From: Acinetobacter phage vB_ApiM_fHyAci03
Direction: 5' to 3' (one strand)
DNA: 64,000 nucleotides
Sequence record: NC_049438.1
Shown here: one piece after another, positions 2,133-42,903 of the stretch
How the letters are laid out: every line of letters begins with the position of its first letter
Position numbering within the stretch: the stretch's first letter is position 1
Position numbers and translations under genes: made by a program
Notes under the pieces: model-generated
Database searches by the model: none
Told to the model about the DNA's origin: nothing
Seen by the model: only the letters and a program-made list of their open reading frames with translations

Positions 2133-2259
2133 ATGCGGGTTGAATATAAAAATTTAACTCATGCTTGTCAGCAAAAGCCTCGGCTTCATGAATAGCAGCA
2201 TAGATTTTCTTACGCAATGCTTCCATATGTTCATCGATTTGGTCTTCAGACATTCCCAT
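2068..2259 (-). CDS. hypothetical protein (63 aa, start uncertain, overlaps next ORF)
   Basis: ORF track. Confidence 0.35.
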   Translation of the reverse strand: MGMSEDQIDEHMEALRKKIYAAIHEAEAFADKHELNFYIQPAYGMGGRYYGSTSSWSPSSETC

Positions 2260-2321
2260 GTGTTTATCCTTAAAAAGTAATAGGACTATTATAACATAGT
2301 CCTATGATGTTGTAAACCACT

Positions 2322-3818
2322 TTAGAAATTTAATTGTGCTGCAAGATCTTCAAGCTCAGATCGTGATGCTGCAGAAATTCGATGAACTTTTTCTAGTTCT
2401 TCACGATTAGACAATTTGATTGACTCTTCTGTGATAGGAATATTCTCCTTTGCATCAACACATGCTTTAATAATGATGTCATCAGTCATCATTTCGTCAG
2501 GAATAACTGGTGCACTCGGTCCATCTGCTTCATACCAGCGCTGATTACCTTTCTTAACACATAACGTGAATTTGTTATTGATTGACTTGTCGCCATAACG
2601 AGATTTAATTTGTTTCATTAGCTGAACACCTTGTGCTGCAAGCTCTTCAGTTTCAATTGCAGCTAAAATGAAGTCAGCGGTATGGCTTAAGCCTGCAGAT
2701 TCTGCAATATCGCTCATGGTAATATCAGAGTTATCCCAGCCGCCACGAGTTGTTTGAGCAGCAGTCCAAATTGGGACTCCTTCTTCAACCGCTAATGCAC
2801 GTAGTTCTTCAGCGATTGCTTTAACAAGTGTATATGAATTTTCGCTAAACACCTTAATTCGAGATGATGCACAAATACCCAAGTAATCGACAACAATAAC
2901 ATCTGGCTTAAATCCCTTCTTGAGTTTGAGTTCATTCAATAACGCTTTAAATGTTAATGCATGTGCACCGCCAATAGGATATTGTTTGATGTACAATTGT
3001 CCTAAAACATTTGCTCGTCTCCAACGTTCCATACGAGCTTTATATTCGGGGTAACTAACATGTCCATCATCTAAGTCATCCATTGAGATATCTAGCAAGT
3101 TTGCATCAATACGTTTTGCAACAACTTCTTCTGCCATCTCCATTGAGATATAAAGAACATTTTTACCGGATTGCAAATAGTCGGCAGTTAATGAACACAG
3201 CCCTAAAGATTTACCAACATTAACACCTGCTAAAATGATGTTAAGTGTTCCAATTTCTACACCGCCTTTAGTGATTTTTCCAAGTATAGAAAGTTTGAAT
3301 GGAATCTTACGTGCTTTGTTCTGATATGATAACCAACGAGATTCATAGTCATCCATCCAGTTATGCCCAATAGATGAATCAAAGCATACTGCTAATGCCT
3401 CTTTCATGATATCTGGGATTGCACCTACATCAGGCAATCGTTTATCTCGTTGGTTTATAGGTTTATCAGCATTGTTCTGAATTTGAACAATTTTTACAGT
3501 GGCATTATATATCGCACGTTTTTTGATAAACGCTTCTGTTTCTGGTACTAACCAATCAATAGATTCCTTTTCAGTTTTGAGATTGTTTAATAAAGTAGTT
3601 GTGCCGTTGAAGTCTACTTCGTTTAAACTTGAATTGTTGACAACTAAGTCTAATGCTACTTTTGATGGAACTCCATGGTATGCATCTACATGCTTCTTAA
3701 TAGAGTTATAGAGAATTCTTGCTGGACCTTTGTCAAAATATTCCTCTTTGAGATATGGCCATACTTTGCCAAAATACTCTTGATTCGAGATCAATTGTCC
3801 TAAAATAATATCAATCAT
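2322..3818 (-). CDS. 41: replicative DNA helicase gp41 (DnaB-like)
   Basis: 498 aa; Walker A GVNVGKS, RecA-like helicase motifs; synteny with T4 41. Confidence 0.9.
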   Translation of the reverse strand: MIDIILGQLISNQEYFGKVWPYLKEEYFDKGPARILYNSIKKHVDAYHGVPSKVALDLVVNNSSLNEVDFNGTTTLLNNLKTEKESIDWLVPETEAFIKKRAIYNATVKIVQIQNNADKPINQRDKRLPDVGAIPDIMKEALAVCFDSSIGHNWMDDYESRWLSYQNKARKIPFKLSILGKITKGGVEIGTLNIILAGVNVGKSLGLCSLTADYLQSGKNVLYISMEMAEEVVAKRIDANLLDISMDDLDDGHVSYPEYKARMERWRRANVLGQLYIKQYPIGGAHALTFKALLNELKLKKGFKPDVIVVDYLGICASSRIKVFSENSYTLVKAIAEELRALAVEEGVPIWTAAQTTRGGWDNSDITMSDIAESAGLSHTADFILAAIETEELAAQGVQLMKQIKSRYGDKSINNKFTLCVKKGNQRWYEADGPSAPVIPDEMMTDDIIIKACVDAKENIPITEESIKLSNREELEKVHRISAASRSELEDLAAQLNF

Positions 3819-3868
3819 GTGAACACCTTAATTAACTAAATCAATTATATCATCATCTCATAGAAGCA

Positions 3869-3886
3869 ATAGGCCCGAAGGCCTAT
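3869..3886 (-). terminator. rho-independent terminator, GGCC-UUCG-GGCC tetraloop hairpin
   Basis: AGGCC-CGAA-GGCCT (UUCG on transcribed strand) + U tract, directly after ORF 3888..4190 stop. Confidence 0.6.
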
Positions 3887-3887
3887 T

Positions 3888-4190
3888 TTAAAAACTGAAC
3901 GGTTTCTTACGTTTAGAGAAGTTCACAATCATTTCTTTTAGAATATATTCGATATGTGGAATCAACTCTGCCTTACGATCTTCACTTGGAGTACTGAAGC
4001 CATATGTTACTCCATTGCCGGAAATTTGGAATTCTGTAATGTAAACAATATGATCTGTACCATCTTCAAGCTTAATTAGGAGTTCATGTTTTACATCTTT
4101 CATTGCATCTTTAATAATACTTAAAGACTTTTCATATAAAGCGCCTGATGGGCCTTTATCATCTTCTTGAATTGCTTCAACTTGTTCCAT
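3888..4190 (-). CDS. hypothetical protein (100 aa)
   Basis: ORF track; followed by UUCG-tetraloop terminator. Confidence 0.5.
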   Translation of the reverse strand: MEQVEAIQEDDKGPSGALYEKSLSIIKDAMKDVKHELLIKLEDGTDHIVYITEFQISGNGVTYGFSTPSEDRKAELIPHIEYILKEMIVNFSKRKKPFSF

Positions 4191-4193
4191 ATG

Positions 4194-5312
4194 TTACTCC
4201 AATAATGCCTTTTCCCACATCGCGTACACACGAGATGGATTGTATTGTTCATATAATGCATTAGCACGTGCAACACGTTGTTCATATGTGTCTTCGAACT
4301 CATTTAATGCTTTAGAATATGCGGCAATAATGTCATTAGTTGTCATACCTTCTTCAATCCAAACAACTTTAGTTAATGGATCATGTTCAAGTGTTGCATG
4401 ACTATAACCACGTTTGATGAGTTGAAGTACAGGCACACCTTTCTCAATAGCTTCCAATGAACCATGTTCAATAGTGCCTGTGTCATGACAAGTGTTAACA
4501 AGGACTAGCGCTTCGGCTAATGTTGCCTGGATAGTTGCACGCGGAACATCAATATGTACAAAAGGCTCTTTGAGATATTTCTTAGGTGGTGCCCATTGAC
4601 TTGGCAGGAATGCAGCAATTTTATGGTGAGATTTACTCATTGCTTCTAAAGCTACATTTGTCTTTCTGAATTTCAAATCATAGCGCTGTGCTGAAACTAC
4701 AACACCATTAGAAGGCAGCACTTTAGGACGATTTTCGATTAATGTAGCCGGGAAGAAATTATCTGAGATGATGTCATGCTCTTGCCAATAATCGAAATCA
4801 ATTGCACCTTTAGCAACTTTGATATTCATTTTTGAATACACTTGAGCCGTAAGGTCTTTAAATGTTTGAGTTGGCACAAGATTCTTGCCGCCATTTTGGT
4901 GAATAAAAACAGCAGTACGCCAAATTGAAACAAGTGTTCGAATACTAGGATCGAGTGGCGTGGCTAAAAGGTTTCGAATTTTAGGTCCTAACCCGAGTTT
5001 GATCAAGCCATTGATAACACCTTTTGCACCTTCAACAGTAACAACTACATCATATTTTGAATAGTCCAATTGTGAAATTTTGTCAATGATTTTGTTGCCG
5101 TGTTTGATAGTGTACTTGTCCACAATTGGGTAGTCAATAGATATTGCATTGACTTTATATGGACCAAAGTTCTCATCGCCGAACGCCATGTAATCGATTT
5201 CATGGTGCTTACTCATTGTTTTGATGAAATTCAATTGAACTGATTCTAAGCCACCGGAAATATAATCAGCATTAAATGTAATAAATCGACATGGAATGTA
5301 TAAAATTTTCAT
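4194..5312 (-). CDS. GT-B fold glycosyltransferase (paralog 1), candidate DNA hydroxymethyl-base glycosyltransferase
   Basis: 372 aa; C-terminal GT4-like motif EHGSLEAIEKGVPVLQL; ~50% identical to adjacent ORF; sits where T4 has beta-gt. Confidence 0.7.
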   Translation of the reverse strand: MKILYIPCRFITFNADYISGGLESVQLNFIKTMSKHHEIDYMAFGDENFGPYKVNAISIDYPIVDKYTIKHGNKIIDKISQLDYSKYDVVVTVEGAKGVINGLIKLGLGPKIRNLLATPLDPSIRTLVSIWRTAVFIHQNGGKNLVPTQTFKDLTAQVYSKMNIKVAKGAIDFDYWQEHDIISDNFFPATLIENRPKVLPSNGVVVSAQRYDLKFRKTNVALEAMSKSHHKIAAFLPSQWAPPKKYLKEPFVHIDVPRATIQATLAEALVLVNTCHDTGTIEHGSLEAIEKGVPVLQLIKRGYSHATLEHDPLTKVVWIEEGMTTNDIIAAYSKALNEFEDTYEQRVARANALYEQYNPSRVYAMWEKALLE

Positions 5313-5341
5313 GTTTCATCTCAAAGAAAGTGTAGTATTAT

Positions 5342-5360
5342 GGAGCCCGAAGGCCCCAGT
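5342..5360 (-). terminator. UUCG-tetraloop hairpin after glycosyltransferase paralog 2
   Basis: GGAGCC-CGAA-GGCCCC between the two GT genes. Confidence 0.45.
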
Positions 5361-5367
5361 TTCAAAA

Positions 5368-6492
5368 TTATTTTAAAACATTTTCCCAGAGTTTGAAATA
5401 TGCTTCTTCGTTAAATTTGTTGTAAAGATATTCAGCCCGTGCAACACGTTGTTCATATGTATCTTCAAACTCATTTAATGCTTTAGCATACATCTCGATT
5501 AATTCTTGAGTACTTGCACCTTCTTCAAATTCAACTCGAACAGTATTAGGGTCGTACTCAAATGTAGCATGGTTGTATCCTTTTTGAATGAGTTGAAGTA
5601 CTGGCGTACCTTGAGAAATAGCTTCAAGCGATCCATTTTCTACTGTACCAGTGTTGTGGCACGTATTGACAAGAAGTTTGGCAGTTGAAATTTCTTTTTG
5701 TATGGTTTGTCGTTTAGCATCGATAATGACCCAGTGATCTTTCTCCAGCCATTTTTTGCCAGGTGCCCATTTCGACGGACAGAATGCGATCTTAGGCCCA
5801 TCAAATAAATCCATTGCACCGAATGCAACATTAGATTTTCTGAATGCATTGTCAAACCGTTGGGCTTGTACAATATGCCCTTCAGAATGAAGGACTTCAG
5901 GTTTATTTGCAATCAAAATCGGCGGATAAAATTCATCTGCAATAATATCATGATTTTGCCAATAATCAAAATCAATGACTTCTGCGGCAATACGTTCATT
6001 CATTTTAGAATAAACCTTTGCAGCTAAATCTTTGAACGTTTGAGTAGGAACGATATTCTTTCCGCCAAGTTTATGGACCATTACTGCATTGTTCCAGCAT
6101 TGTACGATACCACGAACTGATGGGTCAAGTGGAGTAGCAAGAATATTACGAACCTTTGAAATTTGTCCAAGTTCGGCTAATGTATTAAGAACCATTTTAC
6201 TGCCTTCAATGATCACAATAGCATCGTACCGATCCCAGTCTGTGATTTCTTGAAGTTTGTATTTGATTTTATACGCATGTGCGGTAGTGAACTTTGCGCC
6301 AATAGGTTTATCAATTGATAATTCGTTAACTTTAACACTGCCGAAGTTTTCGTCGCCAAATGAAACGTAATCGATATCATGCACTTTTGACAAGTTGACA
6401 ATAAAATTATACTGAACCGCTTCAAGGCCGCCAGCAACACGATCAATATCAAATGGCACTGAACGGCAAGGTAAGTATAAAATTTTCATATT
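5368..6492 (-). CDS. GT-B fold glycosyltransferase (paralog 2)
   Basis: Paralog of 4194..5312 (MKILYLPCR..., ENGSLEAISQGTPVLQL); likely start at second Met (6492) abutting upstream kinase gene. Confidence 0.7.
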   Translation of the reverse strand, partial: NMKILYLPCRSVPFDIDRVAGGLEAVQYNFIVNLSKVHDIDYVSFGDENFGSVKVNELSIDKPIGAKFTTAHAYKIKYKLQEITDWDRYDAIVIIEGSKMVLNTLAELGQISKVRNILATPLDPSVRGIVQCWNNAVMVHKLGGKNIVPTQTFKDLAAKVYSKMNERIAAEVIDFDYWQNHDIIADEFYPPILIANKPEVLHSEGHIVQAQRFDNAFRKSNVAFGAMDLFDGPKIAFCPSKWAPGKKWLEKDHWVIIDAKRQTIQKEISTAKLLVNTCHNTGTVENGSLEAISQGTPVLQLIQKGYNHATFEYDPNTVRVEFEEGASTQELIEMYAKALNEFEDTYEQRVARAEYLYNKFNEEAYFKLWENVLK

Positions 6493-7033
6493 ATGCTCCA
6501 ATAAAATTTTCAAGGTTTAAATCATAAACCACATCAGTAAATGATTTAGCTTCATTAATATTGTTGTGTACATCATGATCGAGGATTTTATATGGAGTTA
6601 TATTAAATTCATCATATACTTCATTAAACCGATCTACGATTGCATTGAATTGATCTTCACTTACTGTAATTAAATCATCAGTAAAGCTATCTACAAGTTT
6701 GTTTCGTGTTAGCCCAATAACCAAGACTTCATTGTTTTGAATGAAACGTCTGAAATCATCTTTGAAGATTTCAACTGGCTTTCCACGAAGAACACTTTCA
6801 TATACAATGTTACTTAAACCGCCTCGATCCAAAACATAGATTTTACTGTTATCGACATAATTTAACATCGTTTCAAAAATTGCGACTTCATTTCGAGTTA
6901 GACAAGTGAAACGTCCTTCACTTGTCTTTTTCGGAAATTCCATCAAGGTTACATCAAAATGACGAGTAAGATTGCTAATCAAAGTTGTCTTACCAGCATT
7001 ATCAGGCCCTTCTACAAGAATTATTTTTGCCAT
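6491..7033 (-). CDS. thymidylate-kinase-like nucleotide kinase (180 aa)
   Basis: P-loop GPDNAGKTT and TMPK DR-motif LDRGGLSNIVYE; distinct from gp1 dNMP kinase found at 46572. Confidence 0.6.
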   Translation of the reverse strand: MAKIILVEGPDNAGKTTLISNLTRHFDVTLMEFPKKTSEGRFTCLTRNEVAIFETMLNYVDNSKIYVLDRGGLSNIVYESVLRGKPVEIFKDDFRRFIQNNEVLVIGLTRNKLVDSFTDDLITVSEDQFNAIVDRFNEVYDEFNITPYKILDHDVHNNINEAKSFTDVVYDLNLENFIGA

Positions 7034-7965
7034 ACATCTTCACCAGGTTGAATAACTACTTCATCATATGATGGCATTATATACTCACTAATGATGTTAG
7101 CATCAAAATAAATCAATTCACCTAACCCAGGATGAAACACATTTTGTGGATTTTCGTTGTAGATAATTGTTGGACGCTGAGACAACGTAATGTAATACGC
7201 GATCTTTGACATTTTAACATCCATAATGGTTACATCTGGATATAGCTCAGCAATCTGATCTTTAAAATCAACATATGTGTCATTTGGATCTGTGATAATG
7301 AGCATATTACCAGTTTCTGCACAATCTTTTACAACATCCATGAATCTATAACATTTGTCAGAGAGTCTGAATGGAAAGAATACAATATTAGAACCCATGT
7401 GCTGAGTGTCATCGATATTTTTTATATATCGTGCAATGACATCAGGATTGACTACCTTTTGAGTCATCACAATTTTATCTGCATCAATTCCATGAGCAAT
7501 AAATTCTGCTCGTTGAGATTCATTCAATACAAATACTTTAATAGATTGCCGTGCAGTTTCAAGATCCGATTCCCACCATTTATCAATGTATGGACGATCT
7601 AATCCAGGAACTTTGGAAATATTTGCATTGAAAATAAATTCATGAACTCCATTATAACCAGTGACATCAGTTATTAATACGTCGATGTTGTTTATTCGCA
7701 TAATTTCATCAACATTAGATTCATTCCAATACCAGAACCATTGGCGAGTTTCTTCAGCATTAGTACCATAATGAAATTGTACAAAGTTGAAATCTGGAAA
7801 TAAGAATTCTAATTCAGATTTGTCTGAAATGTTGAATGGTACAGCAATCAAATCGCCTTTCTGTGCACGATGTAGATGCAACTGAAAGTTGCCGTCTTTG
7901 AGGACGGCATACTCACGAGTAGCATATGATCGCATTGAAAAAATTGGCACAATCATTCTGCTCAT
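7021..7965 (-). CDS. hypothetical protein (314 aa), possible glycosyltransferase-like
   Basis: ORF track; weak C-terminal GT-B-like pattern (HPGLGELIYFDANII); within modification island. Confidence 0.5.
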   Translation of the reverse strand: MSRMIVPIFSMRSYATREYAVLKDGNFQLHLHRAQKGDLIAVPFNISDKSELEFLFPDFNFVQFHYGTNAEETRQWFWYWNESNVDEIMRINNIDVLITDVTGYNGVHEFIFNANISKVPGLDRPYIDKWWESDLETARQSIKVFVLNESQRAEFIAHGIDADKIVMTQKVVNPDVIARYIKNIDDTQHMGSNIVFFPFRLSDKCYRFMDVVKDCAETGNMLIITDPNDTYVDFKDQIAELYPDVTIMDVKMSKIAYYITLSQRPTIIYNENPQNVFHPGLGELIYFDANIISEYIMPSYDEVVIQPGEDVWQK

Positions 7966-7968
7966 AGC

Positions 7969-8679
7969 TTATTCTTCCAAAAATGATTTAACATATTCAA
8001 TATCCCGTTCAAATACATGTGCAGATACAATTGAGTGTGCATAAGTGCCAAGTCCTACACCACATTCTTTAGCAACATGTTCCATGAATCGATGCATAAG
8101 ATAAAAATCTAATTGCATTACCACTGCACAGTTTTGACTACGCATATGAGTATGCATATAAAGTAGCCCTTCACGAATATAAAACGTAATAGAATCCGTG
8201 CATGGGTATTCTAAAGTTTCATCTGAATCTAAAAGAACTTGGTCTTGCTCCTGAAGAATTTGGAAAACTACTCGTCGTGAGTTTGGTTTTTCTTTAAGTT
8301 CTTTAATAAGAGCTGGCATTTGGGCTGCGATTCGTGGCCCGTAGAAGGTGTTGAAATTCGAAGGAAGAGTATCCGTCTTCGGCTTTGCAATGAACTTCGC
8401 GACATTTGGATACTCCTTAAACGCTTGTTCCGCATCTGTGCCACCTTGAATCATGAATTCCCAGAATTTTTCAGCATAACCATAATCAATACGATTGATA
8501 CGTTTGTCTTTAAATGTTGCACCTTGTTCAGGTAATCCGATTTCAATAAGAATTGAACCAATTTCATGACACTTACCGATACGAGAATCTGTGACGAATT
8601 CCGGTGCTTCAACAACAAAATTATTGATACGTTTGAATGCCTCTTCGAACGTGCTAGCTAAAATATATTTTGACATCAA
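7969..8679 (-). CDS. 42: deoxynucleotide hydroxymethylase, thymidylate-synthase family (gp42-like)
   Basis: 236 aa; TS-family motifs NSRRVVFQI and PCTDSITFY...MRSQN; synteny with T4 42. Confidence 0.65.
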   Translation of the reverse strand: MMSKYILASTFEEAFKRINNFVVEAPEFVTDSRIGKCHEIGSILIEIGLPEQGATFKDKRINRIDYGYAEKFWEFMIQGGTDAEQAFKEYPNVAKFIAKPKTDTLPSNFNTFYGPRIAAQMPALIKELKEKPNSRRVVFQILQEQDQVLLDSDETLEYPCTDSITFYIREGLLYMHTHMRSQNCAVVMQLDFYLMHRFMEHVAKECGVGLGTYAHSIVSAHVFERDIEYVKSFLEE

Positions 8680-9071
8680 ATCACCTTTGGGGTATATGGT
8701 TGTTTAGATAATAACTCATTTTTTAGAAAAGCATCTTTGAACTCACGTGGGTTCATTGCTTTGTCATCAATGATCCAGTCATAAACCGGCTTATGAGTTA
8801 TCAAGTGATGATATTTCAATCCGATTTTCTTAAGATTTTTTATTAAAGGTGGCAAGATAATCGAATCAATTAATTCTGGGCCTACTGACTTCATGCCTCT
8901 GGCTGTGAACAGTGTGATTGTATGCCCTTGATCATATAACGAATTAATAGTATCGACCATCTGTTGGTCTGGAACGAAATTCTCATAATCTCGATTATCA
9001 TTCCAGACAGTAATGGTGTTATCGATATCTATGCAAAAATGTTTTGCACCAGTCATTAAAGTTTCTCCCAA
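8676..9071 (-). CDS. HAD-superfamily sugar phosphatase (131 aa)
   Basis: DxDxT motif FCIDIDNTIT; small KdsC/GmhB-like HAD. Confidence 0.55.
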   Translation of the reverse strand: MGETLMTGAKHFCIDIDNTITVWNDNRDYENFVPDQQMVDTINSLYDQGHTITLFTARGMKSVGPELIDSIILPPLIKNLKKIGLKYHHLITHKPVYDWIIDDKAMNPREFKDAFLKNELLSKQPYTPKVI

Positions 9072-10717
9072 TGCATACCATCAACTAATTTATTTGGACG
9101 ATATTTTTCACCGGTTTCTAAATCAATTAAGAGCCATTTATCAGGATTTTTGGTTGTCAATGTAGCGCTGACTAATCCTGTGTCATACGCTACTGAACCA
9201 TCCTGAAGACGTCGTCCCATGTGACTAAGTGTTTTCGATAACAAATACATGCCATAGTAGTATGCACTTACAGCTTTAAGTGGATTGTTTTTGAAATATC
9301 CCGCAAGCGCGATCCAAATAACAGCAACCCATAAATGATGATACTCATTAAATGGTTCTGCATCAACATTTGTCAAGCCTAATGGCTCAATATTCACAAT
9401 AGCTGAATCGCCATCAATCGATAATCCACCCCACATAGGATCCGCATTAAATTTATCATAACCAGTTAATGCATAAAATACTTTAGCTTCATCATAAATT
9501 CGTGGACCATAAATTTTTGTTTTGCCAAAGTATCCACGTGGATCAATCAAACGAACTTTGCCTTTATCATCTAACATCAAGTTACTAAAGTTCGGGTCGC
9601 CATGAATAACATAGTAATCTTTGTCAGAGGCTTCATACATTAAATGAGCGTATGCTTGTTCAAGCATAGTTTCTAAACGTCCAATTTTATGATGATTCAC
9701 ATATTGAATATCGCCAAATGATTGTATTAGCCCTTTAATTTCATTACAACGAGCTAAAACTTTATCAACGACTTCATAACGATAGTCTTCAGCGATTTGT
9801 TCACGTGATGTGAATTCATTCATTTTAGGGAACTTAAGTGTTTCAAGAATTTCTGTGAGCATTTCTGGTTTATATGCCTCAAACATTGGAACACCTTTAA
9901 TTCGTTCCATTTTAAAAGACATATATTCACCAAAATCACGTCGATCAATGATTTTTGGCACCGCATCACTTTCTACACTATCGTACCATGCAAGCTCTTC
10001 ACGTTGAAGTTCTCGCCCCTTTTCATTCAATGCAGTTTTATACACAACATCATTTGCTATTGTAATTGAATTAAATTCTCGATTTAATTCACGGTGACGA
10101 TGTGCGTGTTGGAGTTTTGGCTTATCACCAAGATCAATAAGATTAATCAATTCTTCTTGATACATATTTTTTGCATCAAGCAATTCTACAAAATCACGCC
10201 CTTTGAAGAATTCGTTCGCTTCATCTTTATCATCAAAGTTACTAATAAAGAAATCTTTAAATTGATAGATGCCGACAACATTACCACCAGTACCACCAGT
10301 TTCAGTTAATGTTTTGCCATCAAAATTATATCGACATTCATCACCAAATGTATAAACCGAATTGCTATTCCATGAGAATGCATCAAATTGTGGAATGACA
10401 TCACACCAATTGAATACTACATTATGCAGATTGATCAAATGAGAAATTCGAGAAATTGCATAAGCCGAGCCATAAGCTTCATCAACAGTTTCAACAATTA
10501 TGTCTAACTTGAAAATCTTTGCATACTCACGTACTTGTTCTGCAAATTTGCTATGTACAACCACAATAATTTCATCTGCACCTAATTTTTTGTAGATGCC
10601 ATGCAAATGATGTAGAATTGTATGCTGTTTGTAGTTCACCAAAACTTTAGGAATATGATGTGTGATAGGATACAAACGAGTAGCTAAGCCTGCACCTAAA
10701 ATAACCGCTTTTTTCAT
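9056..10717 (-). CDS. bifunctional sugar-1-phosphate nucleotidyltransferase / APH-type sugar kinase (553 aa)
   Basis: N-term GlmU/RmlA-like motif AVILGAGLATRLYP; C-term APH/ChoK-like catalytic loop HGDPNFSNLMLDDKGKVRLID. Confidence 0.65.
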   Translation of the reverse strand: MKKAVILGAGLATRLYPITHHIPKVLVNYKQHTILHHLHGIYKKLGADEIIVVVHSKFAEQVREYAKIFKLDIIVETVDEAYGSAYAISRISHLINLHNVVFNWCDVIPQFDAFSWNSNSVYTFGDECRYNFDGKTLTETGGTGGNVVGIYQFKDFFISNFDDKDEANEFFKGRDFVELLDAKNMYQEELINLIDLGDKPKLQHAHRHRELNREFNSITIANDVVYKTALNEKGRELQREELAWYDSVESDAVPKIIDRRDFGEYMSFKMERIKGVPMFEAYKPEMLTEILETLKFPKMNEFTSREQIAEDYRYEVVDKVLARCNEIKGLIQSFGDIQYVNHHKIGRLETMLEQAYAHLMYEASDKDYYVIHGDPNFSNLMLDDKGKVRLIDPRGYFGKTKIYGPRIYDEAKVFYALTGYDKFNADPMWGGLSIDGDSAIVNIEPLGLTNVDAEPFNEYHHLWVAVIWIALAGYFKNNPLKAVSAYYYGMYLLSKTLSHMGRRLQDGSVAYDTGLVSATLTTKNPDKWLLIDLETGEKYRPNKLVDGMHWEKL

Positions 10718-12315: not shown

Positions 12316-12655
12316 TACATTGCTTTAAACGCTTTTGGTAGTTTGAAGACTTAAGATAACCAAATTCAATCAAGGTTTGCTCGATTGCCATTTGACGACA
12401 AGTGTGAATTACAAAAGTTGCTGCATCCATTTGTGGCTTATTACGAAGTTTCTCCAGTACAGGACGCTCACGTTCTACTGCATCATCAATATGTGTCTGA
12501 AGCATCCTGCGATGATTTTGCATATCTTCTTCTAAATCAATTCGACGTTGTTGATCAGCTAAACATCGTTTGTCCCATCCTTTGCACATTTGTATATCTT
12601 CAGCAAAAGATAAACTTGGAATAGCTAATGCTAGTGCAATCAATACAAATTTCAT
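12305..12655 (-). CDS. secreted/periplasmic hypothetical protein (116 aa)
   Basis: N-terminal signal peptide MKFVLIALALAIPSLSFA. Confidence 0.5.
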   Translation of the reverse strand: MKFVLIALALAIPSLSFAEDIQMCKGWDKRCLADQQRRIDLEEDMQNHRRMLQTHIDDAVERERPVLEKLRNKPQMDAATFVIHTCRQMAIEQTLIEFGYLKSSNYQKRLKQCIGE

Positions 12656-12948
12656 TACATTGCTCCCAATAAGCTTGCGATAATTGCAAGGTCACCGACA
12701 CCTGCTATAGCAACAATTAGTAATAAGACTAATGCAAATGCGATAGATTTTAAAGCATTCATCACACCGATCGATATTGCAGCTATGATAAATGCAATGA
12801 ATGTTGTTACGCCCATTGTAACGAAGCCAAGTAAGTTTAGAATAACCACAAGGACTGTAATCGCAGTAGAACTCTTATAGAATACTACCATTGCAATAGG
12901 AAATATTGACAAAAATAACGCTACGATACTTCCAAATAAGAGACTCAT
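12655..12948 (-). CDS. small polytopic membrane protein, Imm-like position
   Basis: 97 aa, almost entirely hydrophobic; located between 43 and 42 like T4 imm. Confidence 0.45.
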   Translation of the reverse strand: MSLLFGSIVALFLSIFPIAMVVFYKSSTAITVLVVILNLLGFVTMGVTTFIAFIIAAISIGVMNALKSIAFALVLLLIVAIAGVGDLAIIASLLGAM

Positions 12949-13256
12949 GAGGCGTCTCCTTTAAGTAAAATTAACTCGGTTGTAGTATAGTTAAGTTGAT
13001 CGATAGTGATACAAGTATCTTCCCAACGTTTAACAACATCTTGAACTTCAGCAATGACTTCGTAGTCAGATCCTGGATAGTTGTCCCAATCTTCTGCACG
13101 TCGAATCGGTTCATCACTAAATGCAGTAATAGTTCCATCTTTGTCGACTGCTACATGAGCAGCCCATTCTGGCAAGTATACTGTTACGGGACCAGATTTT
13201 TCAGAACCTGAGATTAGTGTAACATTTAACGCATGCGGATAGTAAGTAATTTTCAT
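12945..13256 (-). CDS. hypothetical protein (103 aa)
   Basis: ORF track, coupled to upstream ORF. Confidence 0.5.
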   Translation of the reverse strand: MKITYYPHALNVTLISGSEKSGPVTVYLPEWAAHVAVDKDGTITAFSDEPIRRAEDWDNYPGSDYEVIAEVQDVVKRWEDTCITIDQLNYTTTELILLKGDAS

Positions 13257-13344
13257 GACGATTTCCTCATTAGGAATAATTATTTGATAGAGTTATTATA
13301 CTAACAAAAATAGCGAAAGTAAAACAAAACTTTCGCTATTTTAA

Positions 13345-13647
13345 TCATTTGCCGTAACGATTTACGAAATGTTCTACCATGTTGTCTGCAATAGTCGCAG
13401 CTGATGAAGAAACTCCATCGCATCCACGAAGGACACCGCTATTTGGCAGATATGCCAATGCACAAGCCTTCCAGAATTCACGTTTCTCTAATTCTGTGAT
13501 TGCAGGAGTAGGTGTACTAAAAAGCTGGTATTCACGAGCTTCATCCACCGATACAGTAGTTCTACATTTAGTACAACGAACTTTAGGTGGACTACTTAGC
13601 AATACTGCGTCGAAATTAAATTCATGATTGCATAATAAACTGTTCAT
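13345..13647 (-). CDS. hypothetical Cys-rich protein (100 aa)
   Basis: ORF track; CxxC pairs (CTKCRT). Confidence 0.45.
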   Translation of the reverse strand: MNSLLCNHEFNFDAVLLSSPPKVRCTKCRTTVSVDEAREYQLFSTPTPAITELEKREFWKACALAYLPNSGVLRGCDGVSSSAATIADNMVEHFVNRYGK

Positions 13648-13680
13648 AACTTACCTCTAGAGGGCATAGAGCCCTCGTTT

Positions 13681-14853
13681 TTAAAAGTCAAATAAATCTT
13701 CTAATGAAGAACGTTTTTCTGCTTGCATACCTGCAGATTCACACATACCTTCCAAAGGTTTCTTATATGTTTTTGTAAACAATGACATAACGTCAATATG
13801 TTTTAAAACATCTTCACGAATTTCTTTTGGAAGTTCGTTACCTGATGGCCATGCAATAACTTTGTCGCCGAATGGATTTCCAGGTTTCAAAGGCAAGATC
13901 ATAACTTTATCACCTTCACTAATATCCGGTAAGTTATCGAATGCCTTAATTGCACGTCGATACGTCAAAACACCACGAATATGACTAGGACATTTCAATC
14001 CAGGGAAGCCATTATCATCATATTTTGCAATGTTATTTGCAGTTCTTACACCTGCAATAACTTTGTAATCAAGATTTCTAAATTCATTTTCAAATTTCTT
14101 GAAATAGTCTTGAAGTGGCTTTTCACCTTCTTGGAGCATAATACGAATACTTTCTAACAATGCATCTTTGACCGCTTTAGGTGTAGATGATTGTTGAGTT
14201 TCCATGCCCATGATTTTCAAGTATGGCTCTTTAAAACGAGTACCTTCCATGTCATACACATTTAATGCATAACGTTTCTTAGCTCGCCAGAATCCACCAA
14301 TACCGTTTGAACCGAGTGGTGGACATGCAATTGCTTCGCGATCCATGAACATTAATTGCTCATAGTTGTTAAGATATTCGCACAGTTCTTGGAAGCCTGC
14401 ATTAATAACTGGTTCGATTTTCTTTGAACCTACTGCATCTAAGAAGTCAACTAATTTTTCAGTTGATGCAAATTTTTCAATGCCAACTTTATCAATGAGT
14501 GGACTCAATTCAATATACAATGAATCTGTATCACCATAAATTACATACGGATGATTAGTTGTTCCACACATTTCATTAAGGTATGCATTAATTTTTCGTT
14601 CTGTCCATTGAAGGACCAATTGTCCGAAAATAGTAATCGCTTCTGCATTACGAAGATCGTAAAATCTAAAGTAGATATTGCCGAGTGCACCATATAATGA
14701 ATTAATCAATAATTTTCGATTAATTTGATTCGTATCACACAAAACAATATAGTTTTCACATTCATGCTCAAGTTCAAGCAATTCTTCTTGTGAAAGTGTT
14801 TTGAGATATTCGATTTCGGATTCAGTTAAGTCACGACTAAAATCTAATTTCAT
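13681..14853 (-). CDS. 43: DNA polymerase gp43 C-terminal subunit (43B: palm motifs B and C, thumb)
   Basis: 390 aa; KLLINSLYGALG (motif B), YGDTDS (motif C), colinear with T4 gp43 residues ~520-898; own GGAG SD + ATG. Confidence 0.9.
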   Translation of the reverse strand: MKLDFSRDLTESEIEYLKTLSQEELLELEHECENYIVLCDTNQINRKLLINSLYGALGNIYFRFYDLRNAEAITIFGQLVLQWTERKINAYLNEMCGTTNHPYVIYGDTDSLYIELSPLIDKVGIEKFASTEKLVDFLDAVGSKKIEPVINAGFQELCEYLNNYEQLMFMDREAIACPPLGSNGIGGFWRAKKRYALNVYDMEGTRFKEPYLKIMGMETQQSSTPKAVKDALLESIRIMLQEGEKPLQDYFKKFENEFRNLDYKVIAGVRTANNIAKYDDNGFPGLKCPSHIRGVLTYRRAIKAFDNLPDISEGDKVMILPLKPGNPFGDKVIAWPSGNELPKEIREDVLKHIDVMSLFTKTYKKPLEGMCESAGMQAEKRSSLEDLFDF

Positions 14854-14874
14854 ATAAACTCCAAATTGATGGGA

Positions 14875-15040
14875 TTATTCTATAACATCATAATCAACTG
14901 ACACTATAGCTTTAATTGTTAGTTCCTTTGAACAGGATTCGCAATTGACTTTGAATTCTTCATCGGCATGTCTCCAATGCTCAAAGTAATCGGACGTGTC
15001 AAGTTCAGAATTGCAGTGTGGGCAGTATATTTCAAACATT
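14875..15040 (-). CDS. small zinc-ribbon protein (55 aa), not in ORF track
   Basis: Hand translation MFEIYCPHCNSELDTSDYFEHWRHADEEFKVNCESCSKELTIKAIVSVDYDVIE; GAGG SD 8 nt upstream; two CxxC pairs. Confidence 0.4.
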
Positions 15041-15149
15041 TCTATGCCTCAAAAGGGATATGACAATTATATCATATCCCTTATCAAAAGCTTAACTATA
15101 ATTCAGATTGTATAATGTAATACGAATCACTTTAGGCGTACGTTTATAT

Positions 15150-15368
15150 TCAAAACATCGCATTGATAACTTCGGCGCCGGCAATTACAGGATTTTTAAA
15201 CATGATACAACCTGTAACAAATCCGGCTAAAAACAACACAGGAATACAGATTAATAGGGCTACAAAAACTCGATACCACAAGCTAACGTATTCACCAATT
15301 GATTCACAATTTTCATTTGCTACTTTAATTTGTTCGAAGATATTCATAGGCCTAACTCCCACAGGCAT
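15150..15368 (-). CDS. small membrane protein (72 aa)
   Basis: ORF track; hydrophobic core VFVALLICIPVLFLAGFVTGCIMF. Confidence 0.35.
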   Translation of the reverse strand: MPVGVRPMNIFEQIKVANENCESIGEYVSLWYRVFVALLICIPVLFLAGFVTGCIMFKNPVIAGAEVINAMF

Positions 15369-15661
15369 TGGTTTAATAACTGATTGATTGAACGTTCGTT
15401 ATGTATAGATTCATTAAGAAGCTGTGCTATAACACGATAATCTGTTTCACTATTGCATCGAGCGTTAAGAATTGTTTGTGCATTTGTGCGACACATATCA
15501 AACGTTTTGAAGAAACTGTCATAACGAGGCAAACGAATTGCATTTAACACATTAGGTTTCCAAACAACATTGAACTTGCCATTGACTTCATCAATAAAGA
15601 ACAACATAGTTTCAATAGATTGAGTATATGTGTACTCTTCGGGCGATGTATAAACTCTCAT
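15344..15661 (-). CDS. hypothetical protein (105 aa) inside gene-43 split
   Basis: ORF track; 4-nt overlap with upstream ORF. Confidence 0.5.
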   Translation of the reverse strand: MRVYTSPEEYTYTQSIETMLFFIDEVNGKFNVVWKPNVLNAIRLPRYDSFFKTFDMCRTNAQTILNARCNSETDYRVIAQLLNESIHNERSINQLLNQCLWELGL

Positions 15662-16002
15662 CGACTTACCTCTGCATCAAAATCTACAAATTTAGCTCTA
15701 CATTCATGATAGACACTATGCATTAAATCTAACACTCCATAATTGAATTGAGAATTTTCTGATTTCCCAAGCAGAGCTCGGGAGCGTGCCGCTATTTCTG
15801 AATTTATAAATTCTAGAACTTCTTTACCTTGTGGATATCGTAACATCTTAGGCACGAATTGTGCGTCAATAGTAATATTACATCTGCCTCTTAACACAGT
15901 AGCTATAAATGGATAATATTCTATCCAATGCTCGCCTGTCGAGCTTGATATTACTCTATTTTGTCCATACATAATAACCTCGTAATATATCAAATTAATC
16001 AA
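15658..16002 (-). CDS. hypothetical protein (114 aa; alternative start at 15972 with GAGG SD)
   Basis: ORF track; preceded by conserved promoter/leader repeat and GC hairpin. Confidence 0.5.
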   Translation of the reverse strand: MINLIYYEVIMYGQNRVISSSTGEHWIEYYPFIATVLRGRCNITIDAQFVPKMLRYPQGKEVLEFINSEIAARSRALLGKSENSQFNYGVLDLMHSVYHECRAKFVDFDAEVSR

Positions 16003-16016
16003 ATCATCTAATTTCG

Positions 16017-16119
16017 GCGCACAGCGCCGGCTGCGCAGCAGCTATTCTGTACCGAACGGCAGATATAATTAGAGCGGTGAACCGGTAGAACCATTATAAC
16101 ATCAAAATTTTGCAAAGCA
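16017..16119 (-). repeat. copy A of ~58-bp conserved promoter/leader block + GC-rich palindrome (GCGCACAGC-GCCG-GCTGCGCAGC)
   Basis: 16061-16118 is reverse-complement-identical to 47922-47979 apart from 1 nt; followed by TTCGGT and GCTGCGCAGC-type hairpin. Confidence 0.7.
16093..16119 (-). promoter_or_regulatory. middle-promoter-like element (TGCTTTG + TATAAT) upstream of ORF 15658..16002
   Basis: Minus-strand TGCTTTG (16113-16119) and TATAAT (16093-16098); identical to the 47921 copy over 53 nt. Confidence 0.45.
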
Positions 16120-16167
16120 CTCGTGTGCTTTACGAATATAGATCATTTTATGAACACTCAAACCAAA

Positions 16168-16395
16168 TCATAACAATTCTTGGATTCTTCTAGATTTATA
16201 CTGCATAAGTTCGGTACGTGTCATTCCTGAAGTGTCCTGTTCACACTGCGCGTTAACTGTTTTAATCATAATGAGGGTATTATGATTTATATTATCTATA
16301 GGAAGTTGTCGGCAGTGTGTGTCTGACATAACTATTCTGCATGGATATTGCTTTGCGATATCTCTAATACTTTCATAATATTGCTTAAGTGACAT
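16168..16395 (-). CDS. hypothetical protein (75 aa)
   Basis: ORF track. Confidence 0.45.
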   Translation of the reverse strand: MSLKQYYESIRDIAKQYPCRIVMSDTHCRQLPIDNINHNTLIMIKTVNAQCEQDTSGMTRTELMQYKSRRIQELL

Positions 16396-16466
16396 ATCAA
16401 ATCTCCATAGATTTTAGAATAATTATATCATAATCAAAAAGCAAAGTAAATATTTTAGACAAAAAT

Positions 16467-16488
16467 AAAGGACCCATTTGGGTCCTTT
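16467..16488 (-). terminator. rho-independent terminator (bidirectional)
   Basis: AAAGGACCC-ATTT-GGGTCCTTT perfect 9-bp stem. Confidence 0.6.
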
Positions 16489-16501
16489 AGATAAAATGAA
16501 A

Positions 16502-16858
16502 TTATACAACGCTATACATTGTAACCGCAATAGGTAGAATTTCATTTGTCAATGTATTAAGGCTACCTTCAGTGATAGGAGTTCCTTGGAAACGATGAAC
16601 GATACGTTCAATTTCAACAACTTTTCGTTTATTAGTTTCTCGATCACGTGGATCAATTACCAATTTGATATTATCATCTTTAAATTCCAGTGCAAGGATC
16701 CCGAGAGTAATTTTTGCATCTAACGAGCGTGTAGAACGAGTATCAATTACTGGAGCTGCTGTGTTAAATTGTAATTTAGATTGCTGGATCATAATATCTC
16801 TACGTACTTTGTAAGTTGATAGGATTATTATATCAATAACCCTATCACATGTAAACAA
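16502..16858 (-). CDS. hypothetical protein (118 aa, TTG start abutting 43A stop; real start possibly internal Met)
   Basis: ORF track only; no SD at TTG. Confidence 0.3.
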   Translation of the reverse strand: MFTCDRVIDIIILSTYKVRRDIMIQQSKLQFNTAAPVIDTRSTRSLDAKITLGILALEFKDDNIKLVIDPRDRETNKRKVVEIERIVHRFQGTPITEGSLNTLTNEILPIAVTMYSVV

Positions 16859-16859
16859 A

Positions 16860-18368
16860 TTATTTCATTAATTTTTTAATCACTTCGGCATTACGCTTTG
16901 CAGCCATCATTTTCTTCTTCCATTCTTTACGTTGGAAGAACACTTTAGTAATTTCTTGTGGAATGATACCTTGCTTTGTCTTCGAATACATCATACCGCT
17001 TGGCGAGCATGAGAATTCATTTGAAGGACTCGGTGCAATCTTATTAATGAAATCACTAAGTTTAGGCGGTGCAAATTGTCCTGCAATTGTTTCTGGGCTA
17101 ATGTTTACCTGGCGAATGATTGACGGATACAGAGATGTTACGTCAAACGACAAAACATATTTGTACGCACCAGGCACAGGGTTTTTAACATATGCGCCTT
17201 CATACGGTTGTCGAACATTTGGCTTAGCTTCCGGTAAAACTAAGTGCTCGGCTTTTAATGAGTTGAAGATAATTGCATCCCAAGTTTTCACAGGACTCAT
17301 TACTGTTGCAATATTCATTCGAGCGTAATAGCCCATTGAAATTGACAGGTTGATAAATCCTCGTTTTGCGTCAATTGCTTGTACACAGTACACATCGACA
17401 ATGTTATATGAAATATAACGCTGGTGGTTTGATTCACGTAATTTGTCGATTGGCCCATCATATTCTAATTTGTTGATGCCAGCTTCATATTCTGCAATAT
17501 AATCGAGTTTATATGATGGCTGTGAAGTAAACGCAAACTTTTTGTATAAATCCATGTAATCGAGAATCATGATTCCAGAAATATTGAAAATTTCTTTATC
17601 TCCATACATGTTTTGAATGACTTTTGACGTTACTTTACCAAAAGGACTTAAACGTTTCATGTTCGAGACGCCAAGAACGTTTTTGATACGATTTACAATA
17701 TATGGAATATCAAATCCTTCAACGTTCCAACCGGTGAAGATGACAGGAGTTTTTTCTTCCCATAAACGAATGTATTCTAACAGCATTTCCTTTTCTGTTT
17801 CGAATGGCATATACACAACTTTATCTAAAATATGTTGTGGAACTTCATCGCCGCCTTCATCAATTGATTTGCCTGCAAGAACCGGATCCCACTTTGAAAC
17901 ACGTCCACGTTGAGAGTTCAACAAGTCAAACACGTAGTATTTGTCATCAATAGAATCATAGTGTGTAATTGCATCAATTTCATATTTTGCAAAAGTCGGA
18001 TTCGGGAACTCTCCTGCTGTTACCTCGATGTCACAGTTTGCAACACGAATTGCATTTCTGTTATATGTGATGTCCTTTTTTCCATACACATCAGAAATAT
18101 ATGCAAGTTTGAAGTCATCCATACCTAAAATTTCTACAATTCCACGTGTCTTTTGCATCCAGTCTTTAGCCTCACGAATGGAGCTAAAACGTTTAGGAAT
18201 ACATGGCTTGCCATAAATGTCTTTATATTTTGATTCAACGCCTTCTTTGGCATGAATGAACAATGTAGGCTCATATGGAATTTCACGAACTTTTTCGACG
18301 CCATTTTCCACATAACGCTCTTGAATAAGGTCACCAGATTGTTCAACTACTAGATAGAAATTATCCAC
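16860..18368 (-). CDS. 43: DNA polymerase gp43 N-terminal subunit (43A: 3'-5' exonuclease domain and palm motif A)
   Basis: 502 aa; FDIEV exo I, DVTSLYPSII motif A; ends ...AEVIKKLMK* exactly where T4 gp43 continues; GTG start with AAGGAGA SD. Confidence 0.9.
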   Translation of the reverse strand: MDNFYLVVEQSGDLIQERYVENGVEKVREIPYEPTLFIHAKEGVESKYKDIYGKPCIPKRFSSIREAKDWMQKTRGIVEILGMDDFKLAYISDVYGKKDITYNRNAIRVANCDIEVTAGEFPNPTFAKYEIDAITHYDSIDDKYYVFDLLNSQRGRVSKWDPVLAGKSIDEGGDEVPQHILDKVVYMPFETEKEMLLEYIRLWEEKTPVIFTGWNVEGFDIPYIVNRIKNVLGVSNMKRLSPFGKVTSKVIQNMYGDKEIFNISGIMILDYMDLYKKFAFTSQPSYKLDYIAEYEAGINKLEYDGPIDKLRESNHQRYISYNIVDVYCVQAIDAKRGFINLSISMGYYARMNIATVMSPVKTWDAIIFNSLKAEHLVLPEAKPNVRQPYEGAYVKNPVPGAYKYVLSFDVTSLYPSIIRQVNISPETIAGQFAPPKLSDFINKIAPSPSNEFSCSPSGMMYSKTKQGIIPQEITKVFFQRKEWKKKMMAAKRNAEVIKKLMK

Positions 18369-18411
18369 GTTATCTCCTTGGTAGGGTATTTTGTATCATT
18401 ATAACACCACA

Positions 18412-18435
18412 AAAGAGGAAGCTAACTCCCTCTTT
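18412..18435 (-). terminator. hairpin upstream of gene 43 (terminator and/or operator)
   Basis: AAAGAGG-AAGCTAAC-TCCCTCTTT; overlaps putative -10 TATAAT (18399-18404, minus). Confidence 0.4.
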
Positions 18436-18446
18436 TATTTTAAAAA

Positions 18447-18680
18447 TTACTTAGATTCAACAACTGTAGTCTTTGTCATTTCTTCGCGAGGTATCCAAGT
18501 GTTCTTGTCGGTTTTGACATAACATCCGGTGATAAAACTATATTTGGTTTGACGACCTGTAATAGATTCATAACTGTTACATTTAACATAACCACTTACC
18601 GTATTGTATGTTAAGCCTACTACAACAATAACACAGACGATAATAACAGAGAATACGAGTTCAGTTAAATTATTACTCAT
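18447..18680 (-). CDS. small membrane protein (77 aa)
   Basis: ORF track; TM segment VFSVIIVCVIVVVGL. Confidence 0.4.
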   Translation of the reverse strand: MSNNLTELVFSVIIVCVIVVVGLTYNTVSGYVKCNSYESITGRQTKYSFITGCYVKTDKNTWIPREEMTKTTVVESK

Positions 18681-19063
18681 TATGCACCTACGACATATTT
18701 TGATTTAAGAGTCCACTCAGCTTTCTGTGCAGCTTTGATAACACGGAAATTGTTAGTAACTTCAATTTCAGGTGGGACATATTCAACCTCAATAAGCCCC
18801 CATGCTTCAAGTGTCTTAGCGATAGAAACGGTACGTTGAACATCTTCATCACTAATATTAACTACTTTACCGTCGAGGCGCATCATATCTTTAAAATGAA
18901 CGATGTACATTTGATCAGCGCCAGTTTGCGGAGACTGCTTCTTCAAAATATGGCAGGATTGATAAAGTACTTTATCTCGTTGGTTAGCGATACCCATACG
19001 AGTCAAAGTTTCTTTAACTTTAAGAAAATTTTCTGGGTGTACCAATTTAATAGGGATCATCAT
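18680..19063 (-). CDS. regA: translational repressor RegA
   Basis: 127 aa; FLKVKETLTRMGIANQRDKVLYQSCHIL matches T4 RegA closely. Confidence 0.85.
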   Translation of the reverse strand: MMIPIKLVHPENFLKVKETLTRMGIANQRDKVLYQSCHILKKQSPQTGADQMYIVHFKDMMRLDGKVVNISDEDVQRTVSIAKTLEAWGLIEVEYVPPEIEVTNNFRVIKAAQKAEWTLKSKYVVGA

Positions 19064-19629
19064 AGCTGCTTCAACTCTTTAATTTCTTTAGGATTTTTAG
19101 TGATAGATTTAAGGAATTCATCTGTTGCTAAAGCTTTAGCCTCTCTAAGAACTGTTTGCAATTTGCCTTTTCGTTCAAGTAATTGACGATAGTTGTAGGC
19201 AACCTGTGAATTCACTTTATAGTAAGCCATAAGAAGCTTGAGTATGTATTGATCTTTAATGCTTTCATCTAACTTTAGTGATTTAGAAAATCGTCGTCCA
19301 TACGGAATAAGGTTCATCAAATAATTATGATGCACTTGATCTGGCAATGAACTTAACATTAAATTAGCATTGTACACAGTAGTCAAGCAATCCATATGCT
19401 GGCTTAACATATTATCAATCATGAATTTTGAATAGTTTTCAAATTGACTGACATTCAATTCACCCTTTACAGAGTTGATGTTATTAAGAATCACAAAGAG
19501 TTCATTTTCAGGTTTCTCTTTATATTCTTCAATAAGTTTTTTAACCATGTCCCAGTCTTTATTAGCCCAGGCTGCCTGATGCGGATTTAGAACTTCCTCA
19601 TCATCGTCAAATAAACATATCATGCTCAT
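19060..19629 (-). CDS. 62: clamp-loader subunit gp62
   Basis: 189 aa; position between regA and 44; overlapping stop/start. Confidence 0.7.
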   Translation of the reverse strand: MSMICLFDDDEEVLNPHQAAWANKDWDMVKKLIEEYKEKPENELFVILNNINSVKGELNVSQFENYSKFMIDNMLSQHMDCLTTVYNANLMLSSLPDQVHHNYLMNLIPYGRRFSKSLKLDESIKDQYILKLLMAYYKVNSQVAYNYRQLLERKGKLQTVLREAKALATDEFLKSITKNPKEIKELKQL

Positions 19630-42129: not shown

Positions 42130-42204
42130 GGTTATCTCTTTTGTGTATTTGATAGTTTAATTATACCAAACTTAATTGTAGATGTAAATAGTTTTGACAA
42201 AAAA

Positions 42205-42228: not shown

Positions 42229-42279
42229 TGCCTGATGGTAAGTTCATCAGGTCTTACAAGCCCTTAAAGGAACTTAATC

Positions 42280-42898: not shown

Positions 42899-42903
42899 TT
42901 AAA

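Follow-up and report, generated by a model that had tools for sequence, protein, structure and literature searches.

In the 64,000-nucleotide stretch of Acinetobacter phage vB_ApiM_fHyAci03 analysed here (sequence record NC_049438.1, hereafter the window), gene 43 is present as two open reading frames (ORFs), 43A and 43B. With a probability of roughly 0.9 these specify a bicistronic replicative family B DNA polymerase (PolB) of the T4 family, composed of gp43A and gp43B. The window belongs to Lazarusvirus, with Acinetobacter baumannii given as the host, and is 98-99% identical over its whole length to other Lazarusvirus records including AB-Navy97, KARL-1, Konradin and Stupor. Gene 43A (16860..18368; like all features of the locus described below it lies on the minus strand) codes for 502 amino acids from a GTG start preceded by AAGGAG and comprises the N-terminal domain, the 3'-5' exonuclease (Exo I-III), palm motif A and the first finger helix, before it ends with a TAA stop codon at the fingertip. 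Gene 43B (13681..14853) codes for 390 amino acids from its own GGAG and ATG and comprises the second finger helix with motif B, palm motif C, the thumb and the C-terminal clamp-binding tail. An initial annotation of the window had placed both reading frames at these positions, and had assigned exonuclease and motif A to the first and motifs B and C through to the C-terminus to the second; both the motifs as located and the alignments with proteins of known structure agree with it.

The split is colinear and clean and falls into the fingertip loop between the two finger helices, as is evident from alignments with PDB chains, a four-way alignment and the placement of the motifs. Residues 1-501 of 43A align to residues 1-500 of the 898-residue PDB chain 9e5y_A (E 1e-214), which we take to be T4 gp43 from its length, and residues 1-500 align to residues 1-502 of the 903-residue RB69-type chains. 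43B continues with its residues 3-390 on residues 516-903 of the RB69-type chains and with residues 17-388 on residues 527-897 of chains 9e5y/9ea3. The initial annotation had put the junction into a loop that is contiguous in T4 gp43, and the colinear alignments to 9e5y, to the RB69-type chains and to T6 gp43 bear this out. In Pfam, 43A matches DNA_pol_B_exo1 and the start of DNA_pol_B up to profile position 144, and 43B resumes the latter profile at position 145. Taken together, the two halves share 62% identity with T6 gp43 over 887 positions, the one gap, of 9 residues, being at the junction; in this four-way alignment the last residue of 43A and the first residue of 43B occupy neighbouring columns, and the gap faces T6 residues about 501-510. 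About 9-13 loop residues are thus absent at the fingertip relative to T6 and RB69, and the joined length is 892 amino acids compared with 898 for T6 gp43. Exo I (CDIEV, 18021-18035), Exo II (17709-17729), Exo III (17391-17408) and motif A (DVTSLYPS, 17121-17144) on 43A and motif B (KLLINSLYG, 14689-14715) and motif C (YGDTDS, 14521-14538) on 43B are all intact, and 43B ends in the C-terminal tail SLEDLFDF (13684-13707).

43A terminates with ...AEVIKKLMK followed by TAA at 16860-16862, while the Shine-Dalgarno sequence GGAG of 43B (14859-14862) is located 5 nt 5' of its ATG (14851-14853). Both ends had been read in this way before, and both turned out to be conserved. The junction is identical in nine Acinetobacter phage lineages, represented by the window, AM101, PhT2, AB1I1M-1, Acj61, Acj9, ZZ1, Ac42 and 133, with 43A ending in ...KKLxK-stop and 43B starting with MxLDFxRD..., and the inserts that separate the halves in these lineages range from 1916 to 3987 bp. 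In Aeromonas phage 50AhydR13PP the break occurs at the same alignment column and the gap holds one HNH endonuclease gene. GGAG precedes the ATG of 43B in 10/10 split phages compared, i.e. the nine Acinetobacter lineages and 50AhydR13PP. As the same stop position and the same GGAG are kept in ten phages despite diverged flanking DNA, independent translation of the two halves appears to be under selection.

We propose that gene 43 was cut long ago in the loop that connects the two long finger helices and that 43A has since ended in a stop codon while 43B is translated from its own Shine-Dalgarno sequence and ATG. The two polypeptides would assemble non-covalently into one enzyme, to which each chain would supply a finger helix and a portion of the palm, motif A residing on 43A and motifs B and C on 43B. 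By homology, assembly and activity of such a heterodimer are suggested by experiments on Aeromonas phage proteins, with co-purification of 43A and 43B and polymerase activity reported in PMC2988022. Furthermore, PolB from Pfu retains full activity when it is split at the fingertip (PMC3061061). This enzyme resembles the phage polymerase in tolerating a break between the two finger helices; unlike the phage protein it is laboratory-made and relies on termination and reinitiation within one transcript. The natural PolB of Methanothermobacter is different, as it is split in the palm and its genes are 85 kb apart.

The split as such is not new. It has been published, is annotated in GenBank and is common to every known relative, so that the novelty implied by the initial annotation has to be withdrawn. 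Lazarusvirus records in GenBank already read "split DNA polymerase", and that of AM101 names gp43A and gp43B. The ZZ1 genome paper describes gene 43 of this phage as split (PMC4177764). The work of Petrov, Ratnayaka and Karam (2010, J Mol Biol) is cited here second-hand, through PMC2988022, PMC2993671 and PMC3061061. According to the last of these, phages 133, 44RR, 31, 25 and 65 make up a sub-family with bicistronic gp43, the gaps extend from 2 bp in an Aeromonas phage to 3 kb in an Acinetobacter phage, and the known phage gp43 splits are placed in the fingertip (PMC3061061). For phage 133 we confirmed the arrangement in the sequence, where 43A is followed by eight ORFs in 2917 bp and then by 43B.

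The statement that a split PolB has been reported in only a handful of T4-related phages likewise falls short of its apparent spread. A tblastn search with 180 residues across the junction returned 1990 phage records, and in 1822 of these a single locus spans 80% or more of the query; at most 168 records, counted over all genera together and with Acinetobacter and Aeromonas phages among them, stay below this coverage. When 43B was compared with 1.84 billion metagenomic cluster representatives (50% identity), about 22-24 of the 150 best matches were complete proteins of 360-391 amino acids. Inspection of 14 of the 43B-like proteins revealed stand-alone forms with a methionine a few residues before motif B and an "L-S/T-x-x-E-L" N-terminus like that of 43B. 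These complete representatives argue for a distribution of stand-alone 43B-type subunits far wider than a handful of phages, and a PolB split at the fingertip appears to be common in uncultured T4-like phages as judged from such protein sequences. What is new here is the conserved core of the insert, its cassette architecture, an allele swap linked to a MobE-type endonuclease, a dispersed repeat and the prevalence of 43B-like proteins in metagenomes; these additions are incremental and in part inferential.

The intercistronic insert (14854..16859) is 2006 bp long and contains six ORFs on the same strand together with its own transcription signals. The initial annotation was right in the length of the spacer and in the presence of same-strand ORFs. 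Three ORF lengths had to be corrected from 118 to 96, from 114 to 104 and from 72 to 65 amino acids when start codons were chosen after the KARL-1 annotation and the positions of Shine-Dalgarno sequences. Counted from 43A, the first ORF, i1 (16502..16792, ATG at 16792), encodes a 96-residue protein of a PHROG family of unknown function. In all Acinetobacter T4-like phages examined it takes the first position behind 43A, its homologues share 25 invariant residues and it occurs as a single copy. In phage 133 it is recovered by a weak BLASTP match (E 2e-6) that a structure search supports. It is found in 66 records, all labelled Acinetobacter save one Tegunavirus sp., and in 8 clusters among 5.8 billion proteins. 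Structure prediction yielded a confident alpha+beta model with weak RWD-like resemblance. The idea that i1 or another insert ORF supplies a "missing" fingertip was rejected, since merely about 9-13 loop residues are absent.

The next two ORFs, i2 (16168..16395, 75 amino acids) and i3 (15658..15972, 104 amino acids, ATG at 15972), are ORFans restricted to Lazarusvirus and Hadassahvirus, i3 being weakly conserved in the latter. They are followed by i4 (15344..15661, 105 amino acids, phrog_26620), for which a word-indexed homologue search returned one cluster, and by i5 (15150..15347, ATG at 15347), a 65-residue single-pass membrane protein of phrog_24434; both families are of unknown function. 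The two are kept in Hadassahvirus, AB1I1M-1, Acj61, Acj9 and ZZ1, where i5 always comes directly after i4, so that the order i4-i5 is retained in six lineages; the pair was not detected in Ac42 and 133. The last ORF, i6 (14875..15039), adjoins 43B and encodes a 54-residue zinc-ribbon protein with a CxxC...CxxC pattern, whose matches are a generic zinc-ribbon in Pfam and a PHROG family of unknown function (phrog_6504). A zinc-ribbon ORF is placed next to 43B in three lineages, with orthologues in AB1I1M-1 and Acj61. PADLOC gave no defence-related match for the six ORFs. Judged by this distribution, the insert has an old conserved core, i1 ... i4-i5, to which lineage-specific ORFans are added. 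The comparison with split gene 43 of other phages that the initial annotation had suggested shows the core to be shared among Acinetobacter phages and absent from the Aeromonas gap: none of i1-i6 is present in the gap of 50AhydR13PP.

Compared in this way, the locus is closest to gp43A/gp43B of the other Acinetobacter phages (133, Acj9, Acj61, Ac42, ZZ1, KARL-1, Konradin, AM101, PhT2). They have the identical junction, regA-62-44-45 upstream and an i1 homologue as the first ORF of a multi-kb, ORF-bearing insert, and differ only in the central part and the 43B-proximal end of the insert, which holds six ORFs in 2006 bp in the window, eight in 2917 bp in phage 133 (including tk.4 phosphatase) and ten in 3987 bp in Acj61. 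The split gene 43 of Aeromonas phages (44RR, 31, 25, 65, 50AhydR13PP) is interrupted at the same aligned fingertip column, and its 43B has its own start and a similar N-terminal motif, L-x-F-x-RD-F...YL-x-TLS-x-EEL. On the other hand, the Aeromonas gaps measure from 2 bp to less than 1 kb and are empty or hold one homing endonuclease, they lack any Acinetobacter insert ORF, and phage 25 carries a group I intron in 43B.

The gap appears to have become a small hyperplastic region, in which the retained core and the ORFans would be combined with cassettes of promoters and stem-loops or terminators. Directly after the 43A stop codon, a predicted promoter with 11/12 consensus matches (TTTACA-17-TATAAT) and a stem-loop form one such cassette (16818..16855), the -10 hexamer being enclosed in a 14-bp hairpin. 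A predicted intrinsic terminator with a 10-bp stem followed by a T-run (16466..16489) comes after i1 and parts the 43A-i1 unit from everything downstream. Both elements correspond to the internal promoter-like element and terminator noted initially. A second promoter-like site (TTTACT-17-TATAAT, 16422..16450) is located upstream of i2, and upstream of the zinc-ribbon ORF another TATAAT lies within a hairpin (15053..15082; 13 bp in the minimum free energy fold), which is the last candidate promoter before 43B. The hairpins in the insert each fold better than 200/200 shuffled sequences, with fold z-scores of -3.8 to -4.7. A cassette of the same type, a terminator hairpin together with TGTTATAAT, is located upstream of 43A (18398..18436). 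Given the strong terminator after i1, transcription of 43B probably starts at promoters within the insert and not at the 43A promoter, as far as consensus matches can tell.

The geometry of a sigma-70-like promoter and a stable stem-loop directly 5' of an ORFan is that of PeSL-type cassettes and is found at 16818-16855, at 16422-16489 (terminator 16466-16489 plus promoter 16422-16450) and at 15053-15082. Like the PeSL cassettes that populate hyperplastic regions in RB49 and phi1, these elements combine sigma-70-type promoters with stem-loops that overlap or precede the -10 box, and the ORFan content differs between close relatives (PMC2839356). The change of insert ORFs between genera, while the flanks stay, supports recombination of cassettes indirectly. 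In contrast, the cassettes of RB49 and phi1 avoid core genes, whereas those described here are predicted to function as promoters and terminators inside an essential gene, and the stems of RB49 are of a G-run/C-run type that is not seen here.

The 43B-proximal end of the insert is probably the landing site of a free-standing homing endonuclease of the MobE type. Of 36 near-identical records, 20 match the insert over its full length, and in 16 the first 190 bp of it are missing. In place of the zinc-ribbon ORF i6 the latter contain a gene for 374 amino acids on the opposite strand, directly upstream of 43B, which is annotated as MobE or HNH endonuclease. The protein falls into the PHROG homing endonuclease family phrog_655 (E 4e-29) and contains a NUMOD3 motif. 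Thus, the initial statement that the insert is free of HNH and GIY-YIG endonucleases is correct for the allele in the window and does not extend to the 16 siblings; a homing endonuclease gene in the gap of the split gene is absent from the window and present in these siblings and in 50AhydR13PP. The exchanged tract (14683..15043) comprises the zinc-ribbon ORF and codons 1 to about 57 of 43B. In a comparison with AM101 (4000-5460), the start of the replacement (window 15043) coincides exactly with the ribosome-binding site of the zinc-ribbon ORF, and the replacement extends into 43B, where 19 amino acids are changed within residues 2-37 and the next ~20 codons, motif B included, differ only silently. 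Beyond codon ~57, genomes with and without MobE are >99% identical. The variant 5' tract of 43B is full-length in 16/16 MobE-carrying records and in those alone. Konradin is without MobE, and a record named Konradin-v2 has it.

Such linkage is the pattern expected if a free-standing endonuclease spreads together with a co-converted part of its target that resists cleavage. With its zinc-ribbon ORF and a 43B N-terminus "K-L-D-F-S...", the window has the allele without endonuclease and is hence a presumed sensitive, cleavable recipient. Comparable cases are nrdA of phage Aeh1, split by mobE, and T4 39/60, split by mobA, in which the gene of an essential enzyme is divided, the polypeptides reassemble and a Mob-type free-standing endonuclease occupies the gap, here in the sibling genomes (PMC2988022). 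There, the endonuclease is the whole insert and likely the cause of the split, whereas the split described here is older than the MobE polymorphism and most insert ORFs do not encode endonucleases.

Several points weigh against the picture of the locus given so far. The promoter scan detected 30 sites when 23.6 were expected from shuffled sequences, the promoter and terminator calls are consensus matches and the putative promoter before the zinc-ribbon ORF has non-canonical spacing. Cleavage of a window-type 43B by MobE is a presumption based on the pattern of linkage, and assembly of the subunits is carried over to Acinetobacter phages from distant relatives. In this sense, we infer both the structure of the transcription units and homing by MobE.

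The insert also harbours one copy of a dispersed promoter-leader repeat (16061..16120, upstream of i3), with a MotA-box-like TGCTTTG, TATAAT and the leader GGTTCTACCGGTTCACCGCTCTAATTATATCT; this copy is 98% identical to 47920-47979 on the plus strand. The core of the repeat is TGCTTTA, 14 nt, TATAAT and then the invariant 32-nt leader, which in most copies is followed by (T/C)AGATG repeats. Genomes of Lazarusvirus and Hadassahvirus have 5-6 copies each, 50-120 nt long and nearly all in unannotated intergenic DNA. In KARL-1 they are found at 33.3, 65.7, 104.7 and 136.7 kb and at the record ends, the sites being the gp43 insert, the record ends, the gap between genes 2 and 3, the gap between gene 34 and rnh and a position just after gene 25. 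We take TGCTTTA to match the consensus of the T4 MotA box and its 14-nt spacing to be within one base of the usual 13; KARL-1 encodes MotA and AsiA.

A conserved structured RNA in the repeat was considered and is not supported, as RNAalifold on five copies gave -4.6 kcal/mol with essentially no covariation and the fold of the single unit at 47.9 kb has a z-score of -1.5. That unit (47920-48085, plus strand) contains a repeat copy antisense between a gp3-like gene (47306-47875) and a gp2-like gene (48085-48924), and about 100 nt downstream of the leader a hairpin GCTGCGCA-caatga-TGCGCAGC; it resembles a non-coding RNA of ~130 nt, the fold z-score being merely the one just given.

Repeat and i1 together raise the question of whether the gap is a functional module linked to replication and not passive cargo, with i1 (or i4/i5) as a polymerase accessory or the repeat copy as an R-loop origin like oriF or oriG. 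In T4, both oriF (uvsY, beside gene 25) and oriG (gene 34) are made up of an unwinding element and a promoter that depends on MotA (PMC3016281), and the KARL-1 copies by gene 25 and in the gene 34/rnh gap are syntenic with these two origins. The MotA-box-like TGCTTTA about 14 nt 5' of TATAAT in phages of which KARL-1 encodes MotA and AsiA would fit an origin, just as the confinement of single-copy i1, with its 25 invariant residues, to Acinetobacter T4-like phages and to the position directly after 43A would fit a polymerase partner. However, Aeromonas split polymerases are without i1, which implies that a split enzyme does not need it in general. In addition, what follows the repeat copy in the insert is a G+C-rich hairpin and not an A+T-rich stretch, the leader has no conserved RNA structure and the argument from synteny is confined to two loci. 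We therefore regard a replication-linked module as unlikely, and an origin role of the repeat as a low-probability lead. If the element were an origin-type promoter, or i1 a partner of the two-chain polymerase, the split would be kept for a reason and not merely tolerated.

Far less probable still is removal of the insert at the level of RNA or protein, by a group I intron, a split intein or translational bypass, so that one full-length polymerase would result. Some GenBank records, Maestro (2225-6682) among them, annotate 43A and 43B as one joined coding sequence, and group I introns do exist in 43B of Aeromonas phage 25 and in gene 43 of JSE (PMC2993671). Nothing in the sequence supports splicing, and a search of Rfam over 12500-19500 at E<=1 returned no intron; two sub-threshold matches to the small RNAs Atu_C9 and Atu_C8 were taken as chance. 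Pfam, PHROGs and PADLOC detected no endonuclease or Hint domain in the six insert ORFs, so that the initial annotation, which had seen no sign of a homing endonuclease, intein or group I intron, proved correct for the window. On 43A and 43B, Pfam finds PolB domains only, neither end has extra residues and the halves abut at the fingertip; the joined length of 892 versus 898 amino acids for T6 gp43 leaves no extra sequence of intein size. We know of no precedent for a ribosomal hop of 2 kb, which counts against bypass. An insert with six ORFs, its own promoters and a strong intrinsic terminator, flanked by a stop codon of 43A and a GGAG-ATG of 43B that are conserved in ten phages, is difficult to reconcile with any such route. 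As far as sequence permits such a statement, splicing, protein splicing and ribosomal bypass are excluded.

That the split is a recent event driven by an endonuclease or recombination, an assembly or frameshift artefact or a sign of gene decay is just as improbable: homing endonucleases do occur in the gaps of the MobE siblings and of 50AhydR13PP (HNH) and the first ZZ1 assembly had spurious split genes that were corrected later (PMC4177764), but the junction is the same in nine Acinetobacter lineages of several genera and >60 independent records, the PCR-corrected ZZ1 genome paper still describes gene 43 as split (PMC4177764), all catalytic motifs are kept at 62% identity to T6 gp43 and no other DNA polymerase appears in the KARL-1 annotation. 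The arrangement is no product of chance or of assembly, as it is present in 36 near-identical records and in more distant genera.

The bicistronic polymerase of Lazarusvirus carries little weight as a discovery, since split gp43 has been described for T4-like phages of Acinetobacter and Aeromonas from 2006-2010 on. Its value is that of a well-populated natural series, in which it can be followed how a PolB operates with its chain interrupted at the fingertip, how a plastic ORFan region is accommodated in an essential gene and how MobE spreads with its co-converted target, for which 20 records without and 16 with the homing endonuclease gene are available at ~98% identity. As the phages are candidates for therapy against A. 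baumannii, correct annotation has practical use, and the polymerase should be entered as two genes instead of a joined coding sequence or pseudogene.

Among the remaining observations, five clustered tRNA genes (Rfam RF00005, 39-65 bits) are located at 42283-45216 (minus strand). Downstream of 43B, below about position 12300, the counterpart region of AM101 (orf076-077, 1-809) is annotated with a D-arabinose-5-phosphate isomerase and a nucleoside-diphosphate-sugar pyrophosphorylase. According to a 2025 preprint (bioRxiv 10.1101/2025.06.16.659550), the DNA of the sibling phage DLP3 contains arabinosylated 5-hydroxycytosine, and the gene cluster for it is located between the DNA polymerase and rIIA. 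Because its DNA carries this base, the split polymerase of DLP3, a sibling with 97.7% identity, would be expected to incorporate a non-canonical dCTP analogue. RB69 does so with an unsplit enzyme. Finally, KARL-1 has further genes in pieces (6921-9781 and 40953-44672): a homing endonuclease interrupts the gene for a topoisomerase subunit, and the annotation of nrdA consists of two "large subunit" ORFs with a 900-bp ORF between them.

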